Of a DNA stretch of 60,812 bases, positions 797-59,606 are shown piece after piece. A program made the position numbers and the translations under genes. The stretch comes from an uncultured Clostridia bacterium (GTDB lineage: Bacteria > Bacillota > Clostridia > Oscillospirales > Oscillospiraceae): the NCBI GenBank assembly GCA_947164825.1, contig CAMUYE010000001.1, positions 1-60,812 on the forward strand, given 5' to 3'. The first letter of the stretch is position 1. The number at the start of each line of letters is the position of its first letter. The notes under the pieces were generated by a model. That model did not search any database. It was not told the DNA's origin and saw only the letters and a list, made by a program, of their open reading frames with translations.

Positions 797-873
797 GTAG
801 GGGCCGGCGTCCTCGACGGCCCGCAGGTATCAGTTACATGTACGTTCGGGGCGTCGAGGACGCCGCCCCCTAC
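797..873. repeat. REPIN-like doublet copy 1: two inverted GTAG-headed palindromic units 25 nt apart
   Basis: GTAGGGGCCGGCGTCCTCGACGGCCC (797-822, +) and GTAGGGGGCGGCGTCCTCGACGCCCC (873-848, read on the minus strand). Nearly identical arms recur at 2078-2154 and 36954-37030. Confidence 0.85.
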
Positions 874-894
874 GGTCTCACAAATCCGCATTCG

Positions 895-2037
895 TCACCC
901 CACAAAAAACGCTTCGATCGCTTTGCGGGGGGCGTTCACCCGGCCCTGGGCGAAGTTGGGCTTGCCGCCGCCGCGGCCGTTGAGGGCCGCGTTCATGTCT
1001 TTCACGAAGCTCCGCAGATCGCCGCCCTCCCAGCCGACGGCATAGGCCCAGCCGGTCTCGTCGTCGCCGGAGAAGGCCGCGCAGCGGCCGCCGCAGGTCT
1101 CCATGACCTCCACGCAGAGGCGGCGCAGGGCGTCCGGGGCCAGGCCCTCCTCAAAGAGGACCACGTTCCCCGCTCCACGCAGGGCCTCCGCCCGGGCGGC
1201 AGCGTACCGGCCCTCCCAGAAGGCCCGCTCCTGCTTCACGGCGTTCAATTCGCCCTGCATCCGTTCCACGGCCTTGGCCGTCTCCAAGGGCTTGGCGGAG
1301 AGCAGGCCGGAAACGCTCCGATTCTGTTCCATCACGGCGGCCAGATAGCTGTAGGCCCGTTTGCCGCAGAGCAGCTCCACCCGGATCCCCTGGTGGAATT
1401 TCACCGCGGAGAGCAGCTTTACAAGGCCGATCTCCCCCGTCCGTTTCACGTGGGTGCCGCAGCAGGCGCAAATGTCCACCCCCGGGAACTCCACCAGCCG
1501 CAGCGCGCCCTGGATGGCTTTCTTGCTCCGGTATTCCACCGGGCACTCGGCTTCCCCGGCATAGACCGTCACCCGGGTCTCCAGATCTTCCCAGATGGCC
1601 TGGTTGACCTGGAACTCGATCCAGCGCAGCCTGTCCCAGGACAGGACCCGGTCGAAGTCGATGGTGATTACCTCGGCGCCCATGTGAAAGCCCACGTTCT
1701 CACAGCCGTAGAACTGATGGGCCAGGCCGGAGACCAGGTGTTCGCCGGAGTGCTGCTGCATCAGGTCAAATCGCCACTCCCAGTCGATCATCCCGTAAAC
1801 TCTTCCGGACAGGGGCCGGTCTACCGTGTGGATCACGACGCCGTCCCGCTCCTGGACGTCCAGCACCCGGGCTTCTCCCAGTTCCCCCTGATCGCAGGGC
1901 TGTCCGCCCCCCTCGGGGTAGAACGCCGTCCGGTCCAATACCACGGCATAGCCGCCTTTCACGGCCTCGCAGGAGAGAACCTGCGCAGAGAAGGTTTTCA
2001 AATAAGCGTCGGTTTCGTAGAGTTTTTCGGTTATCAT
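895..2037 (-). CDS. alaX: alanyl-tRNA editing protein, AlaX-L type (AlaRS/ThrRS second additional domain + DHHA1-like C-terminus)
   Basis: ORF 895..2310 trimmed to ATG 2035-2037 (MITEKLYETDAYLKTF...). Zinc/editing motifs QQHSGEHL and ACCGTHV are present. The 91 upstream codons of the ORF read through repeat copy 2 and are rejected. Confidence 0.8.
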   Translation of the reverse strand: MITEKLYETDAYLKTFSAQVLSCEAVKGGYAVVLDRTAFYPEGGGQPCDQGELGEARVLDVQERDGVVIHTVDRPLSGRVYGMIDWEWRFDLMQQHSGEHLVSGLAHQFYGCENVGFHMGAEVITIDFDRVLSWDRLRWIEFQVNQAIWEDLETRVTVYAGEAECPVEYRSKKAIQGALRLVEFPGVDICACCGTHVKRTGEIGLVKLLSAVKFHQGIRVELLCGKRAYSYLAAVMEQNRSVSGLLSAKPLETAKAVERMQGELNAVKQERAFWEGRYAAARAEALRGAGNVVLFEEGLAPDALRRLCVEVMETCGGRCAAFSGDDETGWAYAVGWEGGDLRSFVKDMNAALNGRGGGKPNFAQGRVNAPRKAIEAFFVG

Positions 2038-2077
2038 GGGGATACCACCTTTATTGCAGATTGGGAGTTGTAAGGCC

Positions 2078-2154
2078 GTAGGGGGCGGCGTCCTCGACGC
2101 CCCGAACGTGTCGTTCTCTGATACCTGCGGGCCGTCGAGGACGCCGGCCCCTAC
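2078..2154. repeat. REPIN-like doublet copy 2 (reverse orientation relative to copy 1)
   Basis: GTAGGGGGCGGCGTCCTCGACGCCCC (2078-2103) ... GGGCCGTCGAGGACGCCGGCCCCTAC (2129-2154). The arms match the reverse complement of copy 1, and only the central ~10 nt differ. Confidence 0.85.
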
Positions 2155-2242
2155 GAAATTGTCTCGACAGCTCCCGATTTGCCGGGAACTTTCTGTGTGC
2201 TTCATCGTCAAAAGAACAAGTCCATAACAGGAGGGTGTGCAA

Positions 2243-2764
2243 ATGAAGGGCAAGAACAAATGCAAGATTCTCAAGGAGATCCGCCAGAAGATCGCCGACG
2301 AGAACGACATCCCCTACGTGACCCGGGAATGTACCTATCGGGGCGATTGTAAGGGGACCTGCCCGAAATGCGAGGCGGAGCTCCGCTATCTGGAACAGGA
2401 GCTGGAGAAGCGCCGCCGTCTGGGAAAGACCGTAGCCGTGGCCGCCGTGGCGGCGGGGCTGAGCCTCTCTTTGGCCGCCTGCACCCCCGGCGGAAGCTCC
2501 GGCGCGGGCAGCGGCGGAGATCTGGGCGGCGTCGCGGTCCCCTCCTACACGCTGCCCGTCCCCACAGACTCGAACACCGAGCGGCCCCTGGAGGGCGAGC
2601 CGGTGGAGTTGGAGGGCGACGTGGCCGCGCCTACGGAAACCGCGGAACCCCTGGTGGGAGAGTTCATTGAAAACACAACAGAAGATCCTCCTGAGCTCCT
2701 GGGAGACGTGGAGTACTTCCCCGAGACGCCGGATGATGTGCCGGAAACCACCGAAGCCCAATGA
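2243..2764 (+). CDS. hypothetical Cys-rich, single-pass membrane protein (cytoplasmic CX5CX3CX2C module, TM helix, acidic Pro/Glu/Thr-rich tail)
   Basis: AGGAGGG lies 7 nt before ATG 2243. Sequence MKGKNKCKILKEIRQKIADENDIPYVTRECTYRGDCKGTCPKCEAELRYLEQELEKRRRLGKTVAVAAVAAGLSLSLAAC.... The stop overlaps the next start (ATGA). Confidence 0.6.
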   Translation: MKGKNKCKILKEIRQKIADENDIPYVTRECTYRGDCKGTCPKCEAELRYLEQELEKRRRLGKTVAVAAVAAGLSLSLAACTPGGSSGAGSGGDLGGVAVPSYTLPVPTDSNTERPLEGEPVELEGDVAAPTETAEPLVGEFIENTTEDPPELLGDVEYFPETPDDVPETTEAQ

Positions 2765-3375
2765 GCGAGCTGAAATATCCCCTGCTGGCCCTGTCCCGGC
2801 ACCGGATGGAGGTGGACGGCGAGGGCGTGACGACCCTGGTCGCCGGGGCCGGCTGTCCCCTCTCCTGCGCCTATTGTATCAACAAAAGCCTGCTTCGGCA
2901 AGCCCCAAGTTTTGTGACGGCGGCGGAATTGTATGAAAAAGTCCGCATCGACGACCTCTATTTTCAGGCCACGGGAGGCGGCCTCTGCTTCGGCGGCGGC
3001 GAAAGCCTGCTGCACGCGGACTTCTATGAGGCCCTGCGGCCCCTCTGCTCCGGCTGGCGCTTCACCGCCGAGACCAGTCTGAACGTCTCCCCGGAGGCCG
3101 TCCGCCGGGCCGCCGAGATCTTTGACGCCTTCATCATCGACGTCAAGACCCTGGACCCGGCGATCTACGAGCGTTACACCGGAAAGCCTCAGGGGCCTGT
3201 AAAAGAAAACCTCTCCTGGCTGGCGGCAAACTTCGAACCGTCCCGCCTGCACGTTCGGGTGCCGCTGATTCCCGGGTACAACAGCGAAGCCGACCAGGCG
3301 CGAAACGAGGCCGTCTTGCGAGAGATGGGCTTTCCGCACATTGAGCGTTTCCCTTACGTGATTCGCCCATCGTAG
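2761..3375 (+). CDS. small radical SAM protein, activase-like (NrdG/PflA-type fold, 204 aa)
   Basis: CxxxCxxC cluster motif GCPLSCAYCINKS and a GGGE SAM-binding motif (FGGGESLLH). Translationally coupled to the upstream gene. Confidence 0.75.
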   Translation: MSELKYPLLALSRHRMEVDGEGVTTLVAGAGCPLSCAYCINKSLLRQAPSFVTAAELYEKVRIDDLYFQATGGGLCFGGGESLLHADFYEALRPLCSGWRFTAETSLNVSPEAVRRAAEIFDAFIIDVKTLDPAIYERYTGKPQGPVKENLSWLAANFEPSRLHVRVPLIPGYNSEADQARNEAVLREMGFPHIERFPYVIRPS

Positions 3376-3427
3376 CGGCGCACAGTATGCGTCATAACGA
3401 GCGCCCCAAAGCACGCAGAGACCCTGC

Positions 3428-3487: not shown

Positions 3488-4009
3488 CTATTCCTCCGCG
3501 TTGAGAACAGCTTTGAAATAGTCGTTTACGGCGCCGCCGCCCCATTGACAAAGCTGCTTTGATCTTCTTTCGTAATGATCCTGGAAATTCATGCGTATGG
3601 CGGAAATGTCCGGATCGTCCGGTGCGAGGACAGACGCTTCCTCTACCATTTCCAGCCCTCTGTTCTGGATCTCGTCAACATCATCGCCGCGCTCCAAAAC
3701 GAACCAAAAGGGCTGGACGTGCATCAAGTATCCGAACAGAGCCAGGTAATCCGGATCATGCGGAAAACATTGATCCCCCGTCTCGGTAATCTCTTTTAAT
3801 CTTCTCATATACAGACCGAGATCGATCTCCCGATTGATAAACGGATGATCCCAGTAGCAGATCAGATACCAGATTTCCGCCCCGGCACACAGGATCCCAT
3901 TTTTGTCCTGGGGCTCCCTTTTCCACTGTTCATACAGATAATCCGCCGCTTCGATCCATTGATTTCTGTTTTCAAGCTCGATTGCGACCGGGTCGAAATG
4001 AAGAACCAT
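3488..4009 (-). CDS. hypothetical cytoplasmic protein, 173 aa, in a locally low-GC segment
   Basis: ORF 3488..4120 trimmed to ATG 4007-4009 with GGAGGAG upstream. MVLHFDPVAIELENRNQWIEAADYLYEQWKREPQDKNG.... By eye about 50% GC versus >60% in the flanks. No family recognised. Confidence 0.55.
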   Translation of the reverse strand: MVLHFDPVAIELENRNQWIEAADYLYEQWKREPQDKNGILCAGAEIWYLICYWDHPFINREIDLGLYMRRLKEITETGDQCFPHDPDYLALFGYLMHVQPFWFVLERGDDVDEIQNRGLEMVEEASVLAPDDPDISAIRMNFQDHYERRSKQLCQWGGGAVNDYFKAVLNAEE

Positions 4010-4077
4010 AATAAGTCTCCTCCTTTGCAGGCAAGCAATGCTTGTTCCTGTGGGCGGTGTTGGTCTTCGAGACACCA

Positions 4078-4134
4078 CCTCATCCGCCCCAGTGTGCGCA
4101 CTGGGGCACCTTCCCCTCAAGGGGAAGGCTTTTT
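4078..4134 (+). repeat. double-hairpin palindromic element (second copy lies inside a CDS at 47575-47622)
   Basis: CCTCATCCG + CCCCAGTG-TGCG-CACTGGGG + CA + CCTTCCCC-TCAA-GGGGAAGG + CTTTTT. The same order of modules, with a different first stem, occurs at 47575-47622. Confidence 0.7.
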
Positions 4135-5417
4135 CAGGCCCAGAACACCCAGATGAACAGGTAGCCTACCAGGACGGCGGTGAGGGTGAAGGGGATGCCG
4201 ATGCGGGCGAAGTCCTTGAATTTCACCTCGTAGCCCTGCTTGCGCAGCAGACCGGTGGCGGTGATATTGGCGGAGGCTCCCACGGGGGTCAGGTTGCCCC
4301 CCAGGGTGGCGCCGCAGAGCAGGCCGAAGTAGAGCAGATAAGGCTCCACCCCCAGCCGGGCCGTCACCACGGACAGCACCGGGAGCATGGTGGCCACGTA
4401 GGGGATATTGTCCACAAAGGCGGAGATCAGCACCGAGCCCCAGACGATCAGGGTATAGAGCAGGAAGAGATTGCTGCCGCCCACCTTGACGATCCACTGG
4501 GCGAAGTCGTCGATAATGCCGATGTTGGTGATGCCGGCGATGACGCAGAACAGGGCGGTGAGCAGCAGCAGTGTCTCGAAGTCCACGCTCTTCACGGCCC
4601 CCACGATGCCCTTGCCGCTCTTCTCGCGGCAAAGCTCCAGCACCATGGTGATCAGGGCCAGGGCCATGCAGATCAGGCCGTTGGTGACCTCGGGCTTATT
4701 GGGGATGAAGGAGGCGGCGATCAACAGCACCACCATGAGCACCAGAGTCACGGAGGGGATATAGTCCCGGACCTCGGTGTGGGCGTCGGAGTGGACGGGC
4801 TGCTTGTCCTTCCGGAAGAGGAACATCATAATGGGCACCGTGGCCAGGGCGCCCAGCTCCACGGCGAAGAACATGCCGGGGCGGCCCTCCATCCAGAAGA
4901 AGCTCATGAAATCCATTTTGGCGTGGGCCGCCAGCATGATGGAGGTGGTGTCCCCCACCAGGGTGGCCGCGCCCTGGAGATTGGAGGAGACGGCGATGGA
5001 GAGGATCATGCCCACGGGGTTGATCTTCAGCTTCTTGCAGACGGCGATGCCCACGGGGGCCACCATGAGGACCGTGGCCACGTTGTCGATGAAGGCGGAG
5101 ACCACGCCGGAGAACAGGGACATGAGGATGGTGACCCACATGACGTTGGAGGCCTTCCGCAGCAGGCCGTCGGCGATCTTGTTGGGCATCTGGGACTCGA
5201 TGAAGTAGTAGACGATGAGCATGGTGCCCGCGATCATCATGAGGGCGTTCCAGTTGATGGCCCCCAGGATCTGATCCAGGGGCAGGACCCCCAGGATCAC
5301 GAAGATCACGGCCACGGCCAGGGCCACCCAGGTCTTGAACCTGGAGAAGCCGATGATGCCCACGTACATGAGGCCAAAGAGGACCAGAGCAACGATTTTC
5401 AGAGTTGATTCAGACAT
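4134..5417 (-). CDS. ArsB/NhaD (CitMHS/SLC13-like) superfamily permease, 427 aa
   Basis: Polytopic membrane protein MSESTLKIVALVLFGLMYVGIIGF...SAFIDNVATVLMVAPV...SAFVDNIPYVATMLPV (duplicated hairpin motif typical of this superfamily). RBS GGAAGG. Confidence 0.75.
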   Translation of the reverse strand: MSESTLKIVALVLFGLMYVGIIGFSRFKTWVALAVAVIFVILGVLPLDQILGAINWNALMMIAGTMLIVYYFIESQMPNKIADGLLRKASNVMWVTILMSLFSGVVSAFIDNVATVLMVAPVGIAVCKKLKINPVGMILSIAVSSNLQGAATLVGDTTSIMLAAHAKMDFMSFFWMEGRPGMFFAVELGALATVPIMMFLFRKDKQPVHSDAHTEVRDYIPSVTLVLMVVLLIAASFIPNKPEVTNGLICMALALITMVLELCREKSGKGIVGAVKSVDFETLLLLTALFCVIAGITNIGIIDDFAQWIVKVGGSNLFLLYTLIVWGSVLISAFVDNIPYVATMLPVLSVVTARLGVEPYLLYFGLLCGATLGGNLTPVGASANITATGLLRKQGYEVKFKDFARIGIPFTLTAVLVGYLFIWVFWA

Positions 5418-5638: not shown

Positions 5639-5748
5639 CTGGGATTTGTAGGGGCCGTAGGGAGGCATCCCTTGATGCCTCCGCCGATGACGATGCGCGG
5701 AGCGATGTGGGCATCGCTCCCTACGGCGCTGCGCGACAAATCCCAATT
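5639..5748. repeat. REPIN-like doublet with outer inverted arms
   Basis: TGGGATTTGT...GTAGGGAGGCATC-CCTT-GATGCCTCC (5657-5682), a 16-nt spacer, then GGAGCGATG-TGGG-CATCGCTCCCTAC (5699-5724)...ACAAATCCCA. Both outer and inner arms are inverted repeats. Confidence 0.85.
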
Positions 5749-5757: not shown

Positions 5758-7119
5758 CTATGCCGCGGCGCGGCGCAGCTTCCGCCAGATGACGAAATAC
5801 ATGGTGGTGAAGCAGGCGGATGCGCCGCAGAGCTGGCTGATGAACTCGGCCCAGAAGACGCCCTCGACGCCCAGACCCAGGCTGGGGAGCAGGAGGGTCA
5901 GGGGCGCTACCAGGATCAGCTTGCGCAGGGTGGAGAAGAAGAGGGCGTGCTTGGGGCGGTTCAGAGCCACAAAGGTGTGCTGGCCCGTGACCTGGAGGGC
6001 CATGAAGGGGAAGGCCCCAAAGTAGATCCGGGCGCAGCGGATCGTCAGCGCCACCAGGTCCTCGTCGTCAGTGAAGATCCGGATCAAAGGCTGGGGGAAG
6101 AACATGGCCATGGTCCACATGAGGGTATTGATAATCAGACCGCCCAGAAGAACGAAACGGATGCCGTCGGAGACCCGGCGGTAGAGCTTCGCGCCGTAGT
6201 TGTAGCTCATAACGGCCTGGCCGCCCTGGGTCACGCCGTTGATGGGCAGGCTCATAATCTCCCGCATGGAGTTGATGAGGCCCATGGCTCCGATGTAGAG
6301 GCTTTCCGCTCCGCCCCAGGTCTTGAGCATGACGTTGACAATGGCCTGGGTAATCGAGTTGGTAACCTTGAACATAAAGCCGGTGACGCCCAGCTTGACC
6401 ACGTTTTTGAGCTCCCTGCCGTCGATCCCCAGGCCCAGCAGACGGACCGGGGGCCGCTTACCCGTCAGGAAGCGAAGGACCCAGAGGGCGCTGACGGTCT
6501 GGGACAGGACCGTCGCCAGGGCCGCGCCCCGGACGCCCATGCCAAAGGCATAGATAAACAAGGGGTCCAAAGCGATGTTCAGAGCCGCGCCGAGGAGCAC
6601 CGTCATCATGCCCACCCGGGGAAAGCCCTGGGAGTTGATAAAGGCGTTCATGCCCAGGCTGATGAGGACCGGGATCGTCCCGACCACGTAAATCCGAAAA
6701 TAGTCCAGGGCGTAGGGCAGGGTGATCTCGTTGCCGCCGAGGACCGTCAGGGTCCAGGGCGCCGTGACAAAGAGCAGGACCATCAGGATCCCGCCGACAA
6801 TGAGCAGGAAGGTGAAGGCCGTCTGCATGATCCGTCCGGCCCGCTCGTCGTCCCCCTCGCCCCGGGCGATGGTGCAGAGGGTGGCCCCGCCGGTGCTGCT
6901 CAGGTTGGCGAAGGCCCCGATCAGCGTGATCAGCGGAAAGCAGACCCCGAGCCCGACCAGGGCGTTGGTGCCCTCCGGCTTCGGCAGGTGGCCGATGTAC
7001 ATGCGGTCCACGATGTTGTAGAGCACGTGGACCAGCTCCGCCAGCATGATGGGCAGCCCCAAGCGGAGGCTCAGGGAAGAAACCTTCCCCTGGGAAAAAT
7101 CACCTTTTGCGGCGGTCAT
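5758..7119 (-). CDS. MATE family efflux transporter
   Basis: 453 aa, 12-TM pattern. N-terminus KVSSLSLRLGLPIMLAELVHVLYNIVDRMYIGHL is typical of MATE/NorM-like pumps. RBS AAGGAG. Confidence 0.85.
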   Translation of the reverse strand: MTAAKGDFSQGKVSSLSLRLGLPIMLAELVHVLYNIVDRMYIGHLPKPEGTNALVGLGVCFPLITLIGAFANLSSTGGATLCTIARGEGDDERAGRIMQTAFTFLLIVGGILMVLLFVTAPWTLTVLGGNEITLPYALDYFRIYVVGTIPVLISLGMNAFINSQGFPRVGMMTVLLGAALNIALDPLFIYAFGMGVRGAALATVLSQTVSALWVLRFLTGKRPPVRLLGLGIDGRELKNVVKLGVTGFMFKVTNSITQAIVNVMLKTWGGAESLYIGAMGLINSMREIMSLPINGVTQGGQAVMSYNYGAKLYRRVSDGIRFVLLGGLIINTLMWTMAMFFPQPLIRIFTDDEDLVALTIRCARIYFGAFPFMALQVTGQHTFVALNRPKHALFFSTLRKLILVAPLTLLLPSLGLGVEGVFWAEFISQLCGASACFTTMYFVIWRKLRRAAA

Positions 7120-37153: not shown

Positions 37154-37182
37154 GCTTCGGTCTCTCCTTCCGGGAGGTTTTT

Positions 37183-45611: not shown

Positions 45612-46291
45612 TACGGCTGCACCTTCTTCCGAATAATGGCCTTCATCTCGGCCACCACCTGGTCGATGGTCAGATAGGAGCAGTCCAGAAGCTCCGCGTC
45701 GTCGGCGCACTTCAGGGGGGCGATCTTCCGGTTCATGTCCTGCTCGTCGCGCTTCACCACGTCGATGTAGACGTCCTCATATTTGACGTCCTGGCCCTTG
45801 GCGAGCAGCTCCTTCCAGCGGCGCTCGGCCCGGACCTCGGCGGAGGCGGTGAGGTAGACCTTGACAGTGGCGTCCGGCAGCACCACGGTGCCGATGTCCC
45901 GTCCGTCCATCACCACGTTGTGGGTCCGGGCCAGCTCCCGCTGCATATCCAGCAGATAGGCCCGGACGCAGGGCTGGGCCGAGACGCCCGAGGCCATCAT
46001 GGACATCTCCGGCGTGCGGATCAAATCCGTCACGTCCTGGCCGTTGAGGATCATGTGCTGGATCCCGTCATCCCGATACTCGATCTGGATGTTCACGTCG
46101 TCGATGCAGCGCTCGATGCCGTCCTTGTCCTTCGGGCCGATGCCCATGAGGCTCATGTGATAGCCCACGGTGCGGTAGATGGCCCCGGTGTCCACATAGA
46201 GCCAGCCCAGCTCGGCGGCCACCCGCTTGGCGATGGTGCTCTTCCCCGCCCCGGCGGGCCCGTCAATCGCCACAGATACGTATTTGTCCAT
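45611..46291 (-). CDS. cmk: cytidylate kinase
   Basis: Trimmed to ATG 46289-46291 (AGGAGG upstream). VAIDGPAGAGKSTIAKRVAAELGWLYVDTGAIYR. The 25 upstream ORF codons are heptad-array read-through. Confidence 0.93.
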   Translation of the reverse strand: MDKYVSVAIDGPAGAGKSTIAKRVAAELGWLYVDTGAIYRTVGYHMSLMGIGPKDKDGIERCIDDVNIQIEYRDDGIQHMILNGQDVTDLIRTPEMSMMASGVSAQPCVRAYLLDMQRELARTHNVVMDGRDIGTVVLPDATVKVYLTASAEVRAERRWKELLAKGQDVKYEDVYIDVVKRDEQDMNRKIAPLKCADDAELLDCSYLTIDQVVAEMKAIIRKKVQP

Positions 46292-46305
46292 ATGTACAAC
46301 CTCCT

Positions 46306-46375
46306 GTGAAGTGAGAAGTGAGAATTGAGAAGTGAGAAGTAAGATGTAAGATGTAGGGACAAGCATTGCTTGTCC
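46306..46375 (+). repeat. heptad array (GTGAGAA/TTGAGAA/GTAAGAT) + GTAG-headed REP
   Basis: GTGAAGTGAGAAGTGAGAATTGAGAAGTGAGAAGTAAGATGTAAGAT GTAG GGACAAGC-ATT-GCTTGTCC. The same REP stem occurs at 42640-42662. Confidence 0.85.
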
Positions 46376-46385: not shown

Positions 46386-46898
46386 CTAAGGCAATTCCTC
46401 GATATATACGATCACGTTGCGTCCGAAGAACTCTGTATAGCCGATTTTCAGATGCTGGCCGTCACCGGTGATCACGCCGCCGAGGGATCTGGCGTTGTGA
46501 TAGCCGGATTGACTCTCAAAATCGCTGTATGCAAAACAGACGCCGTTGATCGTAAAGGATTCCCTGGCGTGTCCCGTTGCCGGCATGGGGTCAAACTCCG
46601 TTACGTATCCCTCCACCGTCTGATACTCGCCCCGTTGATAGGCTCCGACTGTGGCCTGATACATAGCGGCGTGGTAGAAGATAAGTATCGCTGTGAAAAG
46701 CGCAAGCTGGATCGCAAGACCTCCGCTGAAGATCATTCCGATCTGAATTCCGGTCTTCGAGACGCGGTCTGCAGCGGAATCCCGTTTCTTTTTTACAAAG
46801 ACGAGGAAGGCGATCAGGCTGGCGAAAAAGAGAAGCGGTACAACCAGAAGCGCAAAATCAAGCTCAAAGGCCGCCTCGTATAATACACGCGGTTCCAT
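46386..46898 (-). CDS. hypothetical 2-TM membrane protein with C-terminal soluble domain (170 aa), locally low GC
   Basis: Trimmed to ATG 46896-46898 (AAAGGAGAG upstream). MEPRVLYEAAFELDFALLVVPLLFFASLIAFLVFV.... Confidence 0.55.
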   Translation of the reverse strand: MEPRVLYEAAFELDFALLVVPLLFFASLIAFLVFVKKKRDSAADRVSKTGIQIGMIFSGGLAIQLALFTAILIFYHAAMYQATVGAYQRGEYQTVEGYVTEFDPMPATGHARESFTINGVCFAYSDFESQSGYHNARSLGGVITGDGQHLKIGYTEFFGRNVIVYIEELP

Positions 46899-46940
46899 GA
46901 AAAGCTCTCCTTTCGGTTCGGCGCAAAAGTCAGCAGACAT

Positions 46941-47001
46941 GCGGGCAGATTGCCCGCGCTACATTGTCTCCTGTCACTTGTCACCTGTCACCTGTCACTT
47001 G
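46941..47001 (-). repeat. GTAG-headed REP + (GTGACAG/GTGACAA) heptad array; array overlaps the 3' end of the flavoprotein gene
   Basis: Plus strand: GCGGGCAGATTGCCCGCGCTAC ATTGTCTCCTGTCACTTGTCACCTGTCACCTGTCACTTG. On the minus strand the array encodes ...SDR-TGA of CDS 46988..48361. Confidence 0.85.
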
Positions 47002-48361
47002 CGGCAGCGTTGGCCGCGGCGTACGCCGTCGCCCACGCGATCTGCAGGTTGAAGCCGCCGGTGTAGGCGTCCACGTCGATGACTTCCCCGGCGAAGTAGA
47101 GGCCGGGGACCAGCTTGCTCTCCATGGTCTTCGGGTCGATCTCCTTCACCGACACGCCGCCGGAGGTGACGATAGCCTCCTCCACCGGGCGCAGGCCGGA
47201 GATTTTGACGGTAAACTGCTTCGTCAGTTCCAGAAGGCTGCGGCGCTGTTCCTTGGTGACGGAATTCACCTTCGTGTCGCCGGGGATGCCGGAGCGCTCC
47301 ACGATCACCGGGATCATGGTCTTGGGATAGAGCCCCGAGAGGGCGTTCTCGAAGCTGCGGTTTTTGGCCGCGGCGAAGTCCCGCAGGATCCGGGCGTCCA
47401 GGGTGGCCTCGTCCAGGGCGGGCTTCAGGTCTATCGAGATTATGTAAACCTTGTCCTGCTCCATGTGGGCCGAGGCCGAGAGGATCACCGGCCCGGAGAG
47501 GCCGAAGTGGGTAAAGAGGAGTTCGCCGAATTCCTCGTAGACGGGTTTTCCGACGGCTCTCGCCCGGGTCGTCCCCTCATCCGTCGGCTGCGCCGACACC
47601 TTCCCCCCAGGGGGAAGGCTTTCATACAGCCGCAGGTTGACGTTTTTCAGGGCCAGGCCCTGCATGCGGGCGCACCAGGGGCCGTCCTCCACCAGGGGCA
47701 CCAGGGAGCCCACGGGGGGAACGATGGTATGGCCCAGGGCCTTTGCCATCCGGTAGCCGTCGCCGGTGGAGCCGGTGGCGGGGTAGGATTTGCCGCCGGT
47801 GGCCAGGATCACGGCGGGGGCATGGAAGTCGCCCCGGTCCGTGCGGACGCCGGTGACAACGGGGGACGGGGGATACGGATTGCCACGACCAGTCTGCGGA
47901 CTGGTCTCGCAATGACAGGATCGGGACGTTTCTGCCGCAGGAGGCGCGGTCAGGATCTCCTTGGCTCTTGCGCGGCGGAGCTCGACCCCGGCGTAACCCA
48001 GGGCGGTTTTCAGGGCGTCCACCACGGAGGCGGACTTGTCGGACACCGGGAAGACCCGGTTCCCCCGCTCGGTCTTGGTCTCGCAGCCGTGGGACTCGAA
48101 AAATGTGATCGCGTCGGCGGGGGTGAAGCCCGAGAGGACGGAATAGAGGAAGCGGGGGTTCCGGGGGACGTTCTTCAGGACCTCCTGCCAGGAGCAGTCG
48201 TTGGTCAGGTTGCAGCGTCCCTTGCCGGTGATGTAGAGCTTTTTGCCCAGCCGCTCGTTGGGCTCCAGCAGCAGGACCTTTGCCCCGGCATAGCCCGCCT
48301 GGATCGCGGCGAACATCCCCGCGGCGCCGCCGCCCACTACGATAACGTCGTATTCATTCAT
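46988..48361 (-). CDS. HI0933/YhiN-family NAD(P)/FAD-dependent oxidoreductase with two in-frame palindromic insertions
   Basis: Trimmed to ATG 48359-48361. MNEYDVIVVGGGAAGMFAA (GxGxxG)...GLYFAGEVIDVDAYTGGFNLQIAWATAYAAA. It is 457 aa, versus roughly 400-420 aa as I recall for this family. Confidence 0.85.
   Translation of the reverse strand: MNEYDVIVVGGGAAGMFAAIQAGYAGAKVLLLEPNERLGKKLYITGKGRCNLTNDCSWQEVLKNVPRNPRFLYSVLSGFTPADAITFFESHGCETKTERGNRVFPVSDKSASVVDALKTALGYAGVELRRARAKEILTAPPAAETSRSCHCETSPQTGRGNPYPPSPVVTGVRTDRGDFHAPAVILATGGKSYPATGSTGDGYRMAKALGHTIVPPVGSLVPLVEDGPWCARMQGLALKNVNLRLYESLPPGGKVSAQPTDEGTTRARAVGKPVYEEFGELLFTHFGLSGPVILSASAHMEQDKVYIISIDLKPALDEATLDARILRDFAAAKNRSFENALSGLYPKTMIPVIVERSGIPGDTKVNSVTKEQRRSLLELTKQFTVKISGLRPVEEAIVTSGGVSVKEIDPKTMESKLVPGLYFAGEVIDVDAYTGGFNLQIAWATAYAAANAAASDR
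47575..47622 (+). repeat. double-hairpin element (family of 4078-4134) inside the flavoprotein CDS
   Basis: CCTCATCCG GTCGGC-TGC-GCCGAC ACC TTCCCC-CCAG-GGGGAA GGCTTT. Translated on the minus strand as ...SLPPGGKVSAQPTDEG.... Confidence 0.7.
47877..47916. repeat. nested palindrome inside the flavoprotein CDS
   Basis: GGATTGC CAC GACCAGTC-TGCG-GACTGGTC TC GCAATGAC. The stem-loop CCAGTNTGCGNACTGG also occurs at 4090-4107. Translated as ...SCHCETSPQTGRGNP.... Confidence 0.65.
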
Positions 48362-48375
48362 AAAGGTTTTCCTCT

Positions 48376-48477
48376 GAATTGAGAATTGAGAGTTGAGAAT
48401 TGAGAATTTTCGGAGTTTCGCAAATTGCAATTTGCGAAACACATCCATTTTCAATTCTCAATTCTCAGTTCTCAATT
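48376..48477. repeat. composite element: (GAATTGA)n array + GGAG + perfect 26-nt palindrome + inverted (ATTCTCA)n array
   Basis: GAATTGAGAATTGAGAGTTGAGAATTGAGAATTTT CGGAG TTTCGCAAATTGCAATTTGCGAAA CACATCC ATTTTCAATTCTCAATTCTCAGTTCTCAATTG. The right array encodes QLRTEN-TGA of rluB. Confidence 0.88.
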
Positions 48478-49171
48478 GCCGCAGTTCCGCCTCAGTCAGA
48501 TATCGCCATTGCCCCGATTTCAGGTCGCCCAGGGAGATCGGGCCTTCGGCGATGCGCTGGAGGCGGGTGGTCTTCAGGCCCGCGGCCTCGGCCATCCGCC
48601 GGATCTGGCGGTTCCGTCCCTCGTGGATGGTAATCTCCAGCAATGCCGTTCCGTCACGCTGCCACATCAATCGCAGCTCCGGCGCTTGGATGCTTCGGCC
48701 ATCCAGGACGATGGGGCGGCGCAGGAGCGCGAGGGCGCCTTCGTGCCAGCCGGAGACCCAGAGACGGTAGGTTTTGCGGACCTCCCCGGCGGGGTGGGTC
48801 AGGCGCTGGGCCAGGGCTCCGTCGTTGGTCATCAGCAGCAAGCCCTCGGAGAACTGATCCAGCCTGCCCACGGGGTAGAGCCGCCCCAGCGCCGGGGGCA
48901 GGAGCTCCGCAACCGTTTGGCGGCCCTTCTCGTCGGAGAGGGTGGTGACGACGCCCCGGGGCTTGTAGAGCAGCACGGTGACCGTCTCGGCGGGAACGGC
49001 GGGCAGGGGCTTGCCGTCGATCAAAACCAGGTCGGTCTCCGGATCCGCCGTATCGCCAAGGCGGGCAAGGCCTCCGTTCACGGTGACCTTGCCCTGGACA
49101 ATCCATTCCTCCGCACGCCGCCGGGAACAGAGCCCCGCAGCGGAGATTATCTTCTGAACACGTTCTTTCAT
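48458..49171 (-). CDS. rluB: pseudouridine synthase, RsuA/RluB family (S4 domain + catalytic domain)
   Basis: MKERVQKIISAAGLCSRRRAEEWIVQGKVTVNG (S4)...YPVGRLDQFSEGLLLMTNDG (catalytic Asp motif). Confidence 0.9.
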   Translation of the reverse strand: MKERVQKIISAAGLCSRRRAEEWIVQGKVTVNGGLARLGDTADPETDLVLIDGKPLPAVPAETVTVLLYKPRGVVTTLSDEKGRQTVAELLPPALGRLYPVGRLDQFSEGLLLMTNDGALAQRLTHPAGEVRKTYRLWVSGWHEGALALLRRPIVLDGRSIQAPELRLMWQRDGTALLEITIHEGRNRQIRRMAEAAGLKTTRLQRIAEGPISLGDLKSGQWRYLTEAELRQLRTEN

Positions 49172-49192
49172 TTCTTTTTGTTCTTGCGATAT

Positions 49193-49294
49193 GAAGTTGA
49201 AAGTTGAGAATTAAAAATTGAAAGTGATCGGAGTTTTGCAGATTGCAATCTGCAAAACACATTCATTTTCAACTTTCAACTATCAATTTTCAAC
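49193..49294. repeat. composite element homologous to 48376-48477
   Basis: GAAGTTGAAAGTTGAGAATTAAAAATTGAAAGTG ATCGGAG TTTTGCAGATTGCAATCTGCAAAA CACATTC ATTTTCAACTTTCAACTATCAATTTTCAAC. The right array supplies the dacB stop (TGA, 49290-49292). Confidence 0.88.
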
Positions 49295-50294
49295 TGGCGG
49301 GTGGCCAGGAAACGGGCACCTCGGCGACGCATTTGCCGTTCAGGTACACTTTGACCGTACCGGCGTGGGGAAAATCCGGGACGTAGACCAGGCGGGGCTC
49401 CTCTCCGGGAGCGAGGGAGAGCGTCAGATCCGCCTGCGCGATCAGGGTCAGGTCACCGACCCGCATGATCGGCTGGCCTTTGACCGCCGTCTGCTCCTGC
49501 CGGAATTGGGCGAAGCCCCAGTCCAGCAGGGCCATGTGGTCCTGCCAGTCGGCGGGATCGTTGACCGTGACGCAGATCAGGGTCCGGCCCTCCCGCTCCG
49601 CCGCGCTGACCAGGAGCCGCCCCGCCGCCCGGGTATACCCGGTCTTCACCCCGATGCAGCCGGGGCAGCGCCAGAGGAGCTTATTGTGGTTGGTCAGCAT
49701 CCGATCCCCGGACACGACAGCCGTCTTCGCGGCGGCGATGCGCCGGAACTCCGGATTCTGCAGAGCCGCCGCCGTCAGCAGGGCCAGATCCCGGGCGGAG
49801 CCGTAGTTGCCCTCCTGATCCAGGCCGTGCGGGTTGGCGTAATGGGTGTTTTGCAGGCCGAGCCTGCGGGCTGCTTCGTTCATGCGATCCACGAAGGCCG
49901 TCTCGCTGCCCGCCGTGTCAATGGCCAGGGCCAGGGCGGCGTCGTTGCCGGAATGGAGCATGGTGCCGAGAAGCAGCTCCTCCCGGGTCAGGGTCTCCCC
50001 TTCCTGCAGGTACAGAGACGAGCCCTCCACCCCCACGGCCTCCGGGGGGACGGTCACGGGACGGTCCAGATCCCCGGCCTCACAGGCCAGCCAGGCTGTC
50101 ATGATCTTTGTGGTGGAGGCGATCAGCCCGGGATCGTCCGGGTGCCGGGACCAGAGCAGCGCTCCGGTGTCGGCGTCCATCAGCACGCCGCGTCCTGCGG
50201 AGACGGAAGGCGCGGCCTCAGCGGCGGCCGCGGGCAGGCAGAGACTGCCGACAGCGAAAAGGAGTGCCGTCAGCAGAAAGAAAAGTCGTTTCAT
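49290..50294 (-). CDS. dacB: D-alanyl-D-alanine carboxypeptidase (peptidase S11, PBP5-type)
   Basis: Signal peptide and SxxK active site (ASTTKIMT), SGN (HSGND), KTG (VKTGYT). The dacB assignment rests on its position next to scpA/scpB and rluB, as I recall for Bacillus. Confidence 0.8.
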   Translation of the reverse strand: MKRLFFLLTALLFAVGSLCLPAAAAEAAPSVSAGRGVLMDADTGALLWSRHPDDPGLIASTTKIMTAWLACEAGDLDRPVTVPPEAVGVEGSSLYLQEGETLTREELLLGTMLHSGNDAALALAIDTAGSETAFVDRMNEAARRLGLQNTHYANPHGLDQEGNYGSARDLALLTAAALQNPEFRRIAAAKTAVVSGDRMLTNHNKLLWRCPGCIGVKTGYTRAAGRLLVSAAEREGRTLICVTVNDPADWQDHMALLDWGFAQFRQEQTAVKGQPIMRVGDLTLIAQADLTLSLAPGEEPRLVYVPDFPHAGTVKVYLNGKCVAEVPVSWPPAS

Positions 50295-50379: not shown

Positions 50380-50405
50380 GGGCCGATGTGGGCATCGGCC
50401 CCTAC
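50380..50405 (-). repeat. GTAG-headed REP, identical to the unit inside metG
   Basis: GGGCCGATG-TGGG-CATCGGCCCCTAC, flanked by AT-rich palindromes (CAAATT-CGA-AATTTG at 50349-50363). Confidence 0.85.
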
Positions 50406-51581: not shown

Positions 51582-52234
51582 TCAGCCTTCGCCTCCTCTG
51601 CCGGTTGATCGGAGGCTTCTGCCTCGGGCGGGCGGCCAATGGCCGCCCCTACGGCGCGGTCCCCTGTTGCCTGTTGCCCGCTGCCTGTTGCCTCGCCGCC
51701 GTCCTCGGCGGCGGTGCTGAACTGCACCTTCTCCATCTCCGGCAGCTCGTCCAGGGACTCCAGACCGAAGGTGCGGAGGAAGTCGGGGGTGGTGCGGTAG
51801 AGGATGGGGCGGCCCGGGGCTTCCAGGCGGCCGTCTTCCTCGATGAGCTTCTTGTTCAGCAGAGCCGAAACGGAATACGCGCTGTCCACCCCCCGGAGCT
51901 TCTCCACGAAGGCCTTGGTGGTGGGCTGGTAGTAGGCGATAATGGTGAGGGTCTCCAGCTGGGAGGCCGAGAGCTTCGGGGGCTTGCGGGTCTCCAGGGC
52001 ACGGGTGACCCAGGGGGCCAGGTCGTTCTGGGAGCACATCTGCCAGCTGTCCTCCAGCCGGAGGATGCGGATGCCCCGGCGCTCGAAGGCGTAGAGGTCC
52101 ATGAGCTCCTTCATGACGGCCCGGATCTCGTCGGGGTCGGTCTCGGTGACGAAGCTGAGCCGCTCCGTCTCCACCGGCTCCCCGGCGGCGAACAATACTG
52201 CCTCGCAGATGCGGGCAAGCTCCTTATGATCCAT
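51578..52234 (-). CDS. scpB: segregation and condensation protein B with repeat-encoded C-terminal tail
   Basis: ICEAVLFAAGEPVETERLS...LSASQLETLTIIAYYQPTTKAFVEKLRGVDSAYSVSALLNKKLIEE (two winged helices). The tail GGEATGSGQQATGDRAVGAAIGRPPE is encoded by 51630-51694. Confidence 0.9.
   Translation of the reverse strand: MDHKELARICEAVLFAAGEPVETERLSFVTETDPDEIRAVMKELMDLYAFERRGIRILRLEDSWQMCSQNDLAPWVTRALETRKPPKLSASQLETLTIIAYYQPTTKAFVEKLRGVDSAYSVSALLNKKLIEEDGRLEAPGRPILYRTTPDFLRTFGLESLDELPEMEKVQFSTAAEDGGEATGSGQQATGDRAVGAAIGRPPEAEASDQPAEEAKAE
51630..51694 (-). repeat. composite element inside scpB: (GGCAACA)-type heptad array + GTAG-headed REP
   Basis: Minus strand: GAG GCAACAG GCAGCGG GCAACAG GCAACAG GGGAC CGCG CCGTAG GGGCGGCC-ATT-GGCCGCCC. 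Same module order and same reading frame as the metG copy. Confidence 0.85.
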
Positions 52235-56900: not shown

Positions 56901-56966
56901 TGCAGCTCCGCAGCGGCTGCGCAGCTGCGCGGTCCCTGCGGAGATTCCGCGAAAGGAGGCGTCCGT

Positions 56967-59564
56967 TTGATTTTCATATTCGTGCTGGCGGCCGCCTCCC
57001 TTCTGGGCGGCCTCCTTGGCTCCGTGCTCTCGAACCAGCCCCGCCGGAAGGCCCCCCTGGCCGCCCTGCTCCTGGCCCTGACCGCGGCGGCCCTCTTCCT
57101 GGGGGGACTCTGCCTGTGGGCCCGGTCCACGGAGCTGACGGCGGTCGTCGACCGCTTCTTCCCGGACCGCCCCGCCAAGCTTCTCGGCTGCGGCCTGCTT
57201 TTTGCCCTCTGCTGCCTCCTGGGCCTTCTGCTCGGCGTTCTCCGTTCCGGGGGCCTGGGGCGGTATTTCCGCCGGATCGCGGGCAGCCGCGTTCACCGGA
57301 CCGCGTTTTTCGCCGCCCTGGGCGGCGGCCTGGTCCTGGCCGCGGCCTGGGCCTTCCTGACCTGGGTTCCGACCCCCGCACCCATCCGGCTCAACGAAGT
57401 CTGCTGCGCCAACTTCTCCCGCCCGGACCCCGATACGGGAGAGTACGCCGACTATATTGAATTGATCAACACCGGATCCGCCCCCGCGGAGCTGGACGGT
57501 TACTATATTTCCGACAATCCCAAAAAGCGGAATCGCTTCCGCCTCCCCGCCCGGACCCTGGAGCCGGGCCAGACGCTCCTGCTCTGGGCCGACGGCACGG
57601 GCAAGTCCGGCGTGCAAAGCGGCGAAACGATTCACCTGAGCTTTTCTCTGAAGCCCGGCGAAACGGTTTATCTCAGCTCCCCCCAAGGAGCCCTGCTGGA
57701 CGAAGCCCCGGTCCCGGAGCGGCACAAGGACGTCTCCCTCTCCCGGCTGGACGGGGCCTGGACCCTGGCCGAGGCCACCCCCGGCGGTCCCAACGAGGAC
57801 GCCGCTCCCTGGACCGTCCCGACCCTTGACCCGCCCAGCCTCAGCCTGCCCTCCGGCTTCTACGACGGACCCCAGAGCCTGCGCCTGACCGCCGCCCCCG
57901 GCTGCGAGATCCGCTATACCCTGGACGGCTCCCGCCCCGGGTTGGAGAGCCCGCTTTATGAAGGCCCCCTGGCCCTGAAGGATATCTCCGATCAGCCCAA
58001 CCGGGTCGTCAGCCAGCCCAACACCACTCTGGACCGCAGCGGCGCAATCACCGAACCCGTGGACAAGGGCACGGTCCTCCGGGCCGCCTGCTTCGACGCT
58101 GCGGGCAATTGCAGCGAGCCCATCACTGCCGTCTACTTCATCGGCAAGGAGCGCTTCGCCAAATACGAGGGCAGGGTCGTGCTCAACGTCACCGCCGACC
58201 CCAAGGAGCTCTTCGGCGACGCGGGGATCCTGGTCACCGGCCCCGCCTACGACGCCTGGCTGGAGGCCGGCGGCAAGGGCGAGGCCCCCGTCGCCAACTT
58301 CCAGCGCAGCGGCCGGGAATCGGAACGGGAGGCCGCCCTTCTGCTCTGGGACGAGGCCCGTTCTCCCCTGCTGGACTGCCCCTGCGGCCTTCGGGTCCAG
58401 GGCAGCTCCACCCGGGTCTACGCCATCAAGCGTCTGAGCTTCTACGCCCGCCCGGCCTACGGGACGGACCGGCTCTTTTCCGCCCCCATCTTTGCAAGCG
58501 GCCCCTCTCACGCCTTCTTCACCCGTTCCCTGGCCCACGAGCCCATGGCCCAGGCCCTGGCTGCCAAGCGGGGCCTCGGAGGCCAGGACGCCCGCCGGGC
58601 GGCGGTCTTCGTCAACGGGGAATTCTACTGCGAGACCTGGCTGCGGGAACGCTACGACGCCCAATACTTTGAAAATCACTACGGCGTGTCCGAAAAGGAA
58701 ATGATCCTCATCGAAAACCAGCTCGCCGACATCGGCAGCCCGGAGGACTACAACGACTACGCGGCTCTGATGGATCGGATCCTGGCGGGGGATTGCTCGG
58801 ACCCGGCCTTCTATTCCGAGGTCTGCCAAAGCATCGACCCGGAGAGCTTCGCGGCCTTCATGGCCGTCAACCTCTACCTGAAAAACACGGACTGGAGCGA
58901 GCTGGTCAACTACAAGCTCTGGCGGACCCGGAGTCGGCTGGGCGAAGGCGTCCTGGACGGGCGCTGGCACTGGCTGGCCTTCGATATGGACAGCTGCTTC
59001 TGGACCCGGGAAGCCTTCGGCGACGCCCCCCGGGCCTCCTACGACATCTTCTCCTACCCCTCGGTCCTCACAGGCCGCAGCTTCGAGGAAATGCCCCTCT
59101 TCCGGGCCCTGCTGCGGAGCCCGGAGTTCCGGGAGCTCTTCGCCCGAACCTGGCTGGAGCTGCTGAACGTCAGCTTCAGCTACGAGAATTCTCTGCCCCT
59201 GCTGGAGCGCTTCGGCCTCACGGAGGACGCCTTCTGGCCCGAATTCCTCCGGGATCGCCCGGCTTACGCCACAGACCAGCTCATCAAACACATCCTTCCC
59301 GACGCCTCCCCCTGCGCCCTGAGCCTCTCCGCATCCGATCCCGACGGCGGCTGCCTTCGCCTGGATGATCTTTCCGAAGCGATTGCCCTTCCCTGGAACG
59401 GCGCCTGGGTCACCGGCGTCCCCCTGAAGCTCACCGCCGTCCCTGCCGAGGGCTGGCGCTTCCTCCGCTGGGAGGGCTCTGTCGAAAGCACCGAAGAAAC
59501 AATCACCCTGACCCCCGCCGCCGACCTAACCCTGACCGCGGTTTTTGAACGAACAACGCCGTAG
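56967..59564 (+). CDS. CotH-family kinase-like protein with 4 N-terminal TM helices, lamin-tail domain (LTD), chitobiase-C-like domain and C-terminal InlB-B-repeat-like domain
   Basis: TTG start 6 nt after GAAAGGAGG. The LTD is IRLNEVCCANFS...YIELINTGSAPAELDGYYISDN...LLLWADG. FYDGPQSLRLTAAPGCEIRYTLDGS is present, the CotH core is ...FVNGEFYCETWLRERYD...NLYLKNTDWSELVNYKLWR..., and the C-terminus is GWRFLRWEG. Confidence 0.8.
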   Translation: MIFIFVLAAASLLGGLLGSVLSNQPRRKAPLAALLLALTAAALFLGGLCLWARSTELTAVVDRFFPDRPAKLLGCGLLFALCCLLGLLLGVLRSGGLGRYFRRIAGSRVHRTAFFAALGGGLVLAAAWAFLTWVPTPAPIRLNEVCCANFSRPDPDTGEYADYIELINTGSAPAELDGYYISDNPKKRNRFRLPARTLEPGQTLLLWADGTGKSGVQSGETIHLSFSLKPGETVYLSSPQGALLDEAPVPERHKDVSLSRLDGAWTLAEATPGGPNEDAAPWTVPTLDPPSLSLPSGFYDGPQSLRLTAAPGCEIRYTLDGSRPGLESPLYEGPLALKDISDQPNRVVSQPNTTLDRSGAITEPVDKGTVLRAACFDAAGNCSEPITAVYFIGKERFAKYEGRVVLNVTADPKELFGDAGILVTGPAYDAWLEAGGKGEAPVANFQRSGRESEREAALLLWDEARSPLLDCPCGLRVQGSSTRVYAIKRLSFYARPAYGTDRLFSAPIFASGPSHAFFTRSLAHEPMAQALAAKRGLGGQDARRAAVFVNGEFYCETWLRERYDAQYFENHYGVSEKEMILIENQLADIGSPEDYNDYAALMDRILAGDCSDPAFYSEVCQSIDPESFAAFMAVNLYLKNTDWSELVNYKLWRTRSRLGEGVLDGRWHWLAFDMDSCFWTREAFGDAPRASYDIFSYPSVLTGRSFEEMPLFRALLRSPEFRELFARTWLELLNVSFSYENSLPLLERFGLTEDAFWPEFLRDRPAYATDQLIKHILPDASPCALSLSASDPDGGCLRLDDLSEAIALPWNGAWVTGVPLKLTAVPAEGWRFLRWEGSVESTEETITLTPAADLTLTAVFERTTP

Positions 59565-59606
59565 GGCGGTCATACTTCGTGACTCTTACGAGTTCGACCG
59601 CCCTAC
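59561..59606. repeat. GTAG...CTAC palindromic REP between the two CotH paralogs; its GTAG supplies the stop of the first
   Basis: GTAGGGCGGTC ATACTTCGTGACTCTTACGAGTTC GACCGCCCTAC. TAG at 59562-59564 is the stop of CDS 56967..59564. The inner CATACTTCGT also occurs at 37261-37270. Confidence 0.85.

Follow-up and report, generated by a model that had tools for sequence, protein, structure and literature searches.

What are the small GTAG-headed palindromes scattered over this stretch of DNA, and what put them there? The stretch (below, the window) covers positions 1 to 60,812 of a contig, with a G+C content of ~62%, from an uncultured bacterium of the Oscillospiraceae. A first-pass annotation had listed 16 such units and read them as repetitive extragenic palindromic (REP) elements, some of them in inverted doublets (REP doublets forming hairpins, REPINs), mobilized by a REP-associated tyrosine transposase (RAYT). 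GTAG-tagged REPs (Di Nocera 2013; Nunvar 2010) are defined by a GTAG foot, a 20–40 bp imperfect palindrome, variable but complementary stems, a high copy number at dispersed and mainly intergenic sites, and inverted dimers with a regular spacer, known as bacterial interspersed mosaic elements (BIMEs) or REPINs. We find it very probable that the units are REP elements of this kind (single, in inverted REPIN-like doublets and, once, in a "double-foot" form) and that their mobilizer, most likely, is an enzyme of RAYT subclass 2.4, also called Group 4. The annotation's reading thus gains the backing of several direct observations: the anatomy of the units, their over-representation, the covariation of their stems, their presence or absence at orthologous sites (including loops within proteins) and, in related Clostridia, a RAYT-like HUH/Y1 gene that itself carries the units.

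A family of GTAG-headed hairpins in the window

All 16 listed units were found where the first-pass annotation had placed them, on the same strands and with the anatomy described there: GTAG, followed directly by a 7–10 bp stem, a 2–4 nt loop and the complementary stem. Of the unit types, GGCG...CGAC is the most frequent; it has one conserved internal G·A mismatch. The list lacked one further unit, 26132-26153(-), and three decayed ones, 3372-3393(+), 4029-4053(-) and ~14170-14191(-), which brings the total to 17 units and 3 relics in 60.8 kb, well above chance, with three of the sites lying within genes.

The over-representation relative to shuffled sequence that had been anticipated is borne out within the window by motif, pattern and hairpin counts. 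The motif CCGTAGGG occurs 12 times, against 1.68 +/- 1.18 expected from dinucleotide shuffles (0 of 100 shuffles reached 12), GTAGGG 35 times against 19.7 expected, and a 26-nt degenerate unit pattern 9 times against 0.00 expected. Perfect hairpins with a stem of at least 8 bp number 26, compared with 7.1 in shuffles, and 9 of the 26 are headed by GTAG. We also built a covariance model, R1, from 68 distinct units taken from other genomes and from the window, in all 68 of which GTAG is invariant. Run on the window with filters off, it returned 12 units with E<=1e-4 and scored the two 8-3-8 units at E=0.18; no strong units turned up beyond those already known. A tRNA scan of the window found no genes, and a search against Rfam at the gathering threshold gave no match. 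The repeat family is real and statistically solid.

The four inverted doublets also stand as described, with spacers of 25, 25, 16 and 25 nt. The first (797-873, plus strand), 22 nt past the stop of an alaX-like gene, consists of unit A (797-822(+), GTAGGGGCCGGCGTCCTCGACGGCCC), a 25-nt spacer and unit B (848-873(-), GTAGGGGGCGGCGTCCTCGACGCCCC), which R1 scores at E 5e-10 and 8e-10. A second copy of it, in the opposite orientation (2078-2154, minus strand; unit B at 2078-2103(+), unit A at 2129-2154(-)), is in the intergenic region of a divergent gene pair, 41 nt upstream of the ATG (2037) with which the alaX-like gene starts. The doublet at 36954-37030 (plus strand), made of an A-like unit and a B unit, forms a 26-codon in-frame insertion in rimM, the gene's minus strand reading VGGGVLDAPNLSISDTRGPSGTPTPT. 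The remaining one (5657-5724, plus strand) joins two different unit types, GGAGGCATC/GATGCCTCC and GGAGCGATG/CATCGCTCC, across the 16-nt spacer, 34 nt past the stop of the MatE gene 5758-7119(-). The alaX-like gene 895-2037, lying as it does between two inverted doublets, was considered as a candidate REPtron and rejected; it encodes an AlaX-type editing protein, not a transposase.

Folded as single-stranded DNA, single units reach -8 to -14.5 kcal/mol and a whole doublet -39 kcal/mol. The three doublets with 25-nt spacers share the spacer sequence, which is also conserved in two of our comparison stretches (these come from other genomes and metagenomes and carry L-numbers; here L025 and L120). 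In L025 the doublet recurs with 88% identity along 124 nt; this stretch is not syntenic with the window and therefore could not be used for orthologous-site comparison. The two arms of the doublets differ by a compensatory pair (GGCC versus GGGC cores), so that the stem within each arm stays intact and two mismatches arise in the long hairpin, and the unit pairs inside several of the RAYT genes described below likewise differ by compensatory pairs. Since such changes preserve the stems of the arms at the expense of the long hairpin, they point to the single hairpin as the selected structure, although the long one is thermodynamically favored.

Spread of the units and variation at orthologous sites

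A scan of one genome per species with the 26-nt pattern gave at least 118 matching stretches, their hosts being Oscillospiraceae, Ruminococcaceae, Acutalibacteraceae and other Clostridia; among the matches listed, the hosts include Gemmiger formicilis, Ruminococcus flavefaciens, Flavonifractor and Intestinimonas. Judged from these matches, the family appears to be widespread in Oscillospirales and other Clostridia. The general form in these genomes is Y-GTAG-hairpin-G: over 364 units in all the DNA that we fetched, a pyrimidine precedes GTAG (position -1) in 92% and a G follows the hairpin (position +1) in 80%. The most common 26-mers are identical in many species and genera, and their variants differ by compensatory stem changes, so the earlier remark that stems differ yet stay complementary holds across genomes as well. 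Among units preselected for pairing, 8 of the 9 stem pairs have changed on both sides.

Unit content is very uneven even among metagenome contigs that are syntenic with the 35–52 kb part of the window and whose proteins are 81–91% identical to the window's. L125 has almost no units, whereas L124 has tandem arrays of nine and of five. The former array (3046-3324) repeats GTAGGGACGGCAC(T/C)(C/T)TGCCGTCC with a 32-nt period, and the latter (4229-4458) comprises GVLD-type units with a 51-nt period, all copies having the same orientation. We rejected CRISPR as an explanation of the L124 arrays, with which neither the periods (32 and 51 nt) nor the short, near-identical linkers agree.

Comparison of individual sites, made between related species or genera rather than strains, gave the presence/absence differences that the annotation had proposed looking for: a site that is vacant in certain relatives may contain one or another REP type in others. 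Downstream of ispH-S1, for example, the window has one unit, L119 and L120 have none, L122 has a doublet and L126 has three units, and the unit types in L122 and L126 differ from the window's. In RimM, the loop after FKTFYL is a short, empty turn in homologues of 166–167 aa; in others it holds at least four REP types, among them the window's doublet, a DAHI-type element, VGAAIGRP..GGRPMAAPT and a TSIACP element, or else repeats of other families. Two loops of an HI0933-like flavoprotein behave similarly, being empty in L125 and filled by GVLD doublets in L124, with a TSIACP doublet in one of them in L120; in the window both are filled by repeats without GTAG. The unit in the window's metG gene is missing from the methionyl-tRNA synthetase (MetRS) of L090. 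Such sequence comparisons support mobility of the units. They also suggest a use: one loop refilled by different repeat families is a natural series for studying insertion-site choice and the tolerance of protein loops to mobile hairpins.

A RAYT-like gene that contains the units

Clustering all open reading frames (ORFs) of the pattern-bearing stretches yielded a recurrent family, found in ten stretches and 160–185 aa long (~165 aa), with GTAG units in frame inside every full-length case. Unit 1 lies on the coding strand between beta1 and alphaA, its peptide being VGGGVLDAP or VGGDAHIAP. Unit 2, in inverted orientation, follows closely on the HUH motif and is read as GSSGTPTPT or GPMWASAPT. 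In L092 and L073 the gene has flanking units too. The family matches NCBIfam NF047646 (REP-associated tyrosine transposase) with E from 1e-13 to 1e-16 and, weakly, Pfam Y1_Tnp. When the family profile was compared with the PDB, the best match was E. coli TnpArep (4ER8; E 1.4e-8), compared with 7e-3 for ISDra2 TnpA and 7e-3 or worse for IS200/IS605 transposases in general. The AlphaFold (AF2) model, with a predicted local distance difference test (pLDDT) score of 85.9, also found 4ER8 as its top Foldseek match, with a template modeling (TM) score of 0.58–0.60. Two histidines of NHIH (H85 and H87) and Y154, followed by NP at 158–159, are invariant or nearly so, within the consensus motifs MPNHIHLL, NIWQRSY and YIDxNP. 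The family is large: we found 1214 homologues at E<=1e-10 with a first query and 627 at E<=1e-8 with a second, for a total above 1200 (the extent to which the two sets overlap is unchecked). Some of them already carry the name "REP element-mobilizing transposase RayT", and Flavonifractor plautii is among the species that have such a gene.

One member of the family occupies a fixed locus, dnaA-dnaN-recF-gyrB-gyrA-...-rnhA-RAYT, in 12 contigs. In L199 (9567-10516), and likewise in L200–L202, there is a 4-nt overlap between this gene and the stop of an RNase H gene; gyrA, in the origin-proximal cluster, is ~1 kb upstream. The gene body is AT-richer than its two GC-rich in-frame hairpins. Elsewhere on the L199 contig there are dispersed units, including an exact copy of the RAYT gene's internal unit 1.

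One might argue that the units inside these genes are incidental, that is, that the repeats are real and are spread by other means (recombination, gene conversion between copies or another nuclease), the in-gene copies being just two more insertions. REPs do insert in many protein loops, and the peptides encoded by the in-gene units fall in loops as well: in the AF2 model the unit-1 peptide forms a beta-hairpin loop and the unit-2 peptide a low-confidence loop. Four observations nevertheless make this explanation quite unlikely in our view. Both in-gene positions are occupied in all 24 full-length homologues that the family alignment displays, and when the 120 retrieved first-query homologues were screened by peptide pattern, none clearly lacked in-gene units. 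The two units of a gene are always of the same type, VGGGVLDAP going with GSSGTPTPT and VGGDALIAP with GPMKASAPT. A second, independent subfamily has its own matched pair, VGRGLAP and AAGASPRPT. Finally, the fold and motifs are those of the sole enzyme known to bind GTAG hairpins.

The reverse relationship, in which the dispersed units are what remains of RAYT genes that have decayed, or derivatives formed by internal deletion between the two in-gene hairpins, would account for the fact that a doublet (a plus unit, a spacer and a minus unit) has the layout of the RAYT gene and translates to its in-gene peptides, VGGGVLDAP...GxSxTPxPT. The spacers, however, tell against it. They are kept among copies and genomes (gcaggtatcag...acgttc), yet show no similarity to the sequence beside the in-gene units, and the doublets are therefore not simple gene-deletion derivatives. 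Single units and tandem arrays also occur, and tblastn with 120 RAYT proteins gave no match in the window or near dispersed units. We give this explanation hardly any weight.

As the first-pass annotation had stated, the window holds no transposase gene, judging by a Pfam check of its genes and by tblastn with RAYT proteins. An IS200/IS605 insertion sequence, which would have a multi-copy tnpA (with or without tnpB) between left-end and right-end hairpins, was considered and rejected: neither tnpA nor tnpB is present in the window, and the relatives' gene has a fixed locus and is closer to RAYT than to IS200 TnpA.

Relation to known REP–RAYT systems

The closest described system is TnpA-Y1 subclass 2.4 of Quentin et al. 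(2018; PMC6006769), which corresponds to RAYT Group 4 of Bertels et al. (2017). That subclass has the HuH motif as NH[IFV]H, a WQ motif and YIxNNP (Table 1, PMC6006769); the Clostridial proteins have NHIH, WQ and YIDxNP. Its REPs are of the long GTAG type, with a stem that begins with G-C pairs and with "double-foot" GTAG...CTAC forms (PMC6006769), and in our genomes too we see long GTAG REPs whose stems start with G-C pairs, as well as the window's double-foot element at 59561-59606. Its unique trait is the presence of in-frame REPs within tnpAREP between HuH and Y (PMC6006769), and all displayed Clostridial homologues have such a REP past HuH (unit 2), in a gene that, as in the subclass, appears to be of low copy number. 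Judged by these published motifs and REP features rather than by the authors' own models, the Clostridial proteins thus appear to fit subclass 2.4/Group 4.

There are also differences. Subclass 2.4 abounds in Cyanobacteria as well as in Bacteroidetes and is scattered elsewhere, having been mainly described also for Chlorobia and Caldilineae (PMC6006769), whereas the hosts here are Oscillospiraceae and other Clostridia. The Clostridial gene has a second in-gene unit before HuH, between beta1 and alphaA, so that two units that co-vary in type bracket the HuH-coding segment. The proteins are shorter (~160–175 aa versus a median of 194), and the unit sequence is unusually conserved across species.

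E. coli TnpArep (RayT/YafM, 4ER8; Group 2 or subclass 2.2) shares the HUH/Y1 fold and is the best sequence and structure match to the Clostridial family, and the E. coli REPs and BIMEs resemble our units in combining a GTAG foot with an imperfect palindrome, in forming inverted pairs and in being mostly intergenic. The E. coli enzyme differs in its motifs (DHLH and YIHYNP) and in that REPs flank its gene, whereas the Clostridial gene contains them; E. coli REPs are also species-specific, while identical 26-mers occur here in many genera. The Pseudomonas REPINs (Bertels and Rainey, 2011) are similar in being inverted REP doublets with a conserved spacer, several near-identical copies and a predicted long hairpin. 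In our doublets, by contrast, the compensatory difference between the arms leaves that long hairpin with two mismatches, and the elements, 78 nt long with one flanking base, are tolerated in frame in genes. Precedents for small in-frame palindromes in housekeeping genes, including those for tRNA synthetases, and for TAG stops contributed by GTAG come from Rickettsia palindromic elements (RPEs) and from the intragenic REPs described by Di Nocera et al. (2013); what differs here is that one protein loop (in RimM or the flavoprotein) is alternately empty or filled by several repeat families. Di Nocera et al. (2013) describe intragenic REPs and GTAG-donated TAG stops with no mention of Firmicutes or Clostridia.

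What is new is therefore the occurrence of a REP/RAYT system in Oscillospiraceae and other Clostridia, for which our literature search, in keeping with the first-pass annotation, found no description; the RAYT class itself, with its in-gene and double-foot REPs, has already been published. Work on such systems has been confined almost entirely to Proteobacteria, although surveys have extended to Cyanobacteria and Bacteroidetes; their range now takes in Clostridia of the gut and rumen, abundant bacteria that are mostly uncultured.

How the units might move

We propose that the mobilizer is a single-copy, domesticated HUH/Y1 enzyme of RAYT subclass 2.4/Group 4, whose gene presumably lies in another part of the genome. 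On the model of E. coli TnpArep, this enzyme would attach to the hairpin that a unit forms in single-stranded DNA, recognize the GTAG at the hairpin's foot, and cleave and rejoin the DNA beside it. The cuts would probably fall at Y|GTAG or hairpin-G, positions that may be marked by the pyrimidine conserved at -1 and the G conserved at +1. Cutting and rejoining of this kind, following a single-stranded route, might copy or exchange units at replication forks.

Several points weigh against this proposal. No RAYT gene or remnant was found in the 60.8-kb window by tblastn with 120 RAYT proteins, and the REP–RAYT link therefore rests on other genomes, mostly of different species. None of the 240 homologues inspected was a RAYT with the window's 8-3-8 unit types (VGTSIACP and VGAAIGRP). 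The matches to the curated RAYT and Y1 models fall below the cut-offs of those models, and action of the enzyme on REP single-stranded DNA is, for this subclass, a prediction from homology. REPs are usually species-specific, and 26-mers identical across many species are atypical of them. Finally, because the units used for covariation had been preselected for pairing, a percentage-paired statistic is circular.

Gene context and possible host functions

The window's genes, mapped roughly from third-position G+C and checked with Pfam, have housekeeping or sporulation roles (alaX-like, metG, an opp-type transporter, rimM, ffh, ispH-S1, cmk, scpA/B, ytfJ and spoIIID), and the majority of units sit shortly past stop codons. 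This placement could be taken to mean that the hairpins are immobile host regulatory structures (terminators, attenuators or stabilizers of mRNA 3′ ends), kept by selection site by site. In line with that idea, the hairpins are stable, GTAG is on the sense strand of the upstream gene in 8 of the 9 single units, and four units donate the TAG stop of the gene upstream. These four are the degenerate unit at 3372-3393(+) (GTAGCGGCGCACAGTATGCGTC, 5 of 7 stem pairs), whose TAG at 3373-3375 ends the radical-SAM gene 2761-3375 and of which L126 has an intact relative, GTAGCGGCGCACACTGTGCGCC; the 7-3-7 unit at 26132-26153(-) (GTAGGGGACGGGTTTCCCGTCC), with the stop of the ABC ATPase gene 26150-27265(-) at 26150-26152 and a near-identical counterpart in L122 that is one base longer at its 3′ end; the 10-2-10 unit at 40548-40573(-), with the stop of the DUF896 gene 40570-40779(-) at 40570-40572; and the double-foot element at 59561-59606 (plus strand; GTAGGGCGGTC...GACCGCCCTAC), with the stop of the CotH-like gene 56967-59564 at 59562-59564. 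The last of these folds with -15.9 kcal/mol (z -6.1).

On the other hand, no window unit has a T tract and none was called terminator-like, and we rejected intrinsic (Rho-independent) terminators, in which a T tract follows a GC-rich hairpin, on these grounds, true terminators lying elsewhere. The ispH-S1 gene illustrates this well: the 8-3-8 unit downstream of it (42640-42662(-), GTAGGGACAAGCATCGCTTGTCC; E 0.18), which sits between period-7 arrays, comes after the gene's own canonical terminator. Nor does the idea explain why rimM, metG, scpB and a flavoprotein gene carry in-frame units, why the same site may be empty or contain different unit types in relatives, or why tandem arrays reach nine units. 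We therefore regard immobile regulatory hairpins as improbable and prefer mobile REPs, which may possibly have acquired a host function after insertion; possible secondary effects include the formation of mRNA 3′-end structures and the donation of TAG stop codons.

The units are thus not strictly extragenic. In addition to the rimM doublet there are two intragenic in-frame sites, both with single units: 14126-14151(-), which encodes AVGADAHIGPP in the MetRS linker that connects the anticodon and tRNA-binding domains, and the 8-3-8 unit 51630-51652(-), which encodes AVGAAIGRPP in the C-terminal tail of ScpB. A (CAACAGG)4.4 array and a degenerate unit come before the former, a (CAACAGG)n array before the latter, and in both proteins array and unit are read in frame together (EATG..QQATGD..AVGA). 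A unit identical to the one in metG lies at 50380-50405(-), 25 nt past the ytfJ stop. The repeats add peptides of 8–26 residues to housekeeping proteins such as RimM, MetRS and ScpB.

Two further units bracket ORF 46386-46940. One is the 8-3-8 unit at 46353-46375(+), with a period-7 array 5′ of its GTAG, and the other the unit at 46941-46962(-), which has a GTAGCG head (GTAGCGCGGGCAATCTGCCCGC) and a (GTGACAG)n array 5′ of it; in L124, a unit identical to GTAGCGCGGGCAATCTGCCCGC occurs once and the related GTAGCGCGGGCTATTAGCCCGC in three tandem copies. Despite its inverted flanking units, this ORF is not a transposase: it encodes a membrane protein without a Pfam match. Inverted period-7 arrays bracket it as well. 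Another ORF without a Pfam match, 3488-4020, is bracketed by the relics 3372-3393(+) and 4029-4053(-). The third-position G+C of the two ORFs is 0.62 and 0.57, respectively, versus more than 0.8 in their neighbors, and they may be acquired genes at repeat-rich hot spots. The region upstream of cmk varies among relatives, with ~1.8 kb there in L120.

The repeats also have consequences for sequence analysis. Mechanical ORF calls at 895-2310(-), 36587-37213(-) and 45611-46366(-) read upstream through REP units and so acquire spurious N-terminal extensions; the alaX-like ORF, for example, whose true ATG is at 2037, is called out to 2310, and the doublet is then translated as VGAGVLDGPQVSENDTFGASRTPPPT. 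Read-through of this kind will probably disturb the automatic annotation of such genomes. The repeats also donate stop codons, as noted above, and they break assemblies, many RAYT and RimM contigs being shorter than 2 kb.

Period-7 arrays and other repeats

Just 5′ of the GTAG head, some units have a period-7 tandem array of 4–5 copies and variable sequence (TTGAGAA, GTGACAG, GGCAACA or GTAAGAA). The window's arrays are at 42604-42638, 42680-42711, 46308-46355, 46965-46998, 14198-14228 and 51663-51693, and others occur in L034, L086, L092, L113 and L120–L126. Within 70 nt of a unit, an array is found on the 5′ side of 30 of 346 units versus the 3′ side of 6 of 346, and in 7 of 3000 random segments (0.2%); the association is with period 7 only. 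Many of the arrays score as -35/-10-like, with 20 promoter-like matches versus 2.9 expected between 36 and 55 kb.

A more elaborate version of the RAYT proposal would tie these arrays to the enzyme. Here, the in-frame inverted REP pair that brackets the HUH-coding segment would be a conserved reference copy that couples enzyme and substrate, and a period-7 array plus hairpin would be a composite cassette, laid down or expanded during RAYT-mediated insertion. A reference copy locked in the RAYT frame would explain why identical 26-mers persist across many genera, and a cassette of this sort would move promoters and hairpins and remodel protein loops in housekeeping genes. We think this extended version unlikely, though worth stating.

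A second repeat family, ~100 bp long and without a GTAG head, has an AT-rich central palindrome (GTTTCGCAAATTgcAATTTGCGAAAC or GTTTTGCAGATTgcAATCTGCAAAAC) between inverted period-7 arrays. Copies are at 48372-48480 and 49190-49298 in the window, also at 39390-39550, and at 4987-5088 in L025; one copy folds to a ~50 bp hairpin (-34.5 kcal/mol, z -10), and a copy with 85% identity is present in another Oscillospiraceae metagenome-assembled genome (MAG). Two more families of GC-rich palindromes without GTAG, GACCAGTCtgcgGACTGGTC encoding CHCETSPQTGRGNP and CCTTCCCCCcaGGGGGAAGG encoding PPGGKVSAQPTDEG or PDATFPQGGRL, are represented in the window at 47887-47906, 47599-47618 and 4086-4128. These palindromes lie in frame in the two loops of the window's HI0933-like flavoprotein and, in other species, also in the RimM loop.

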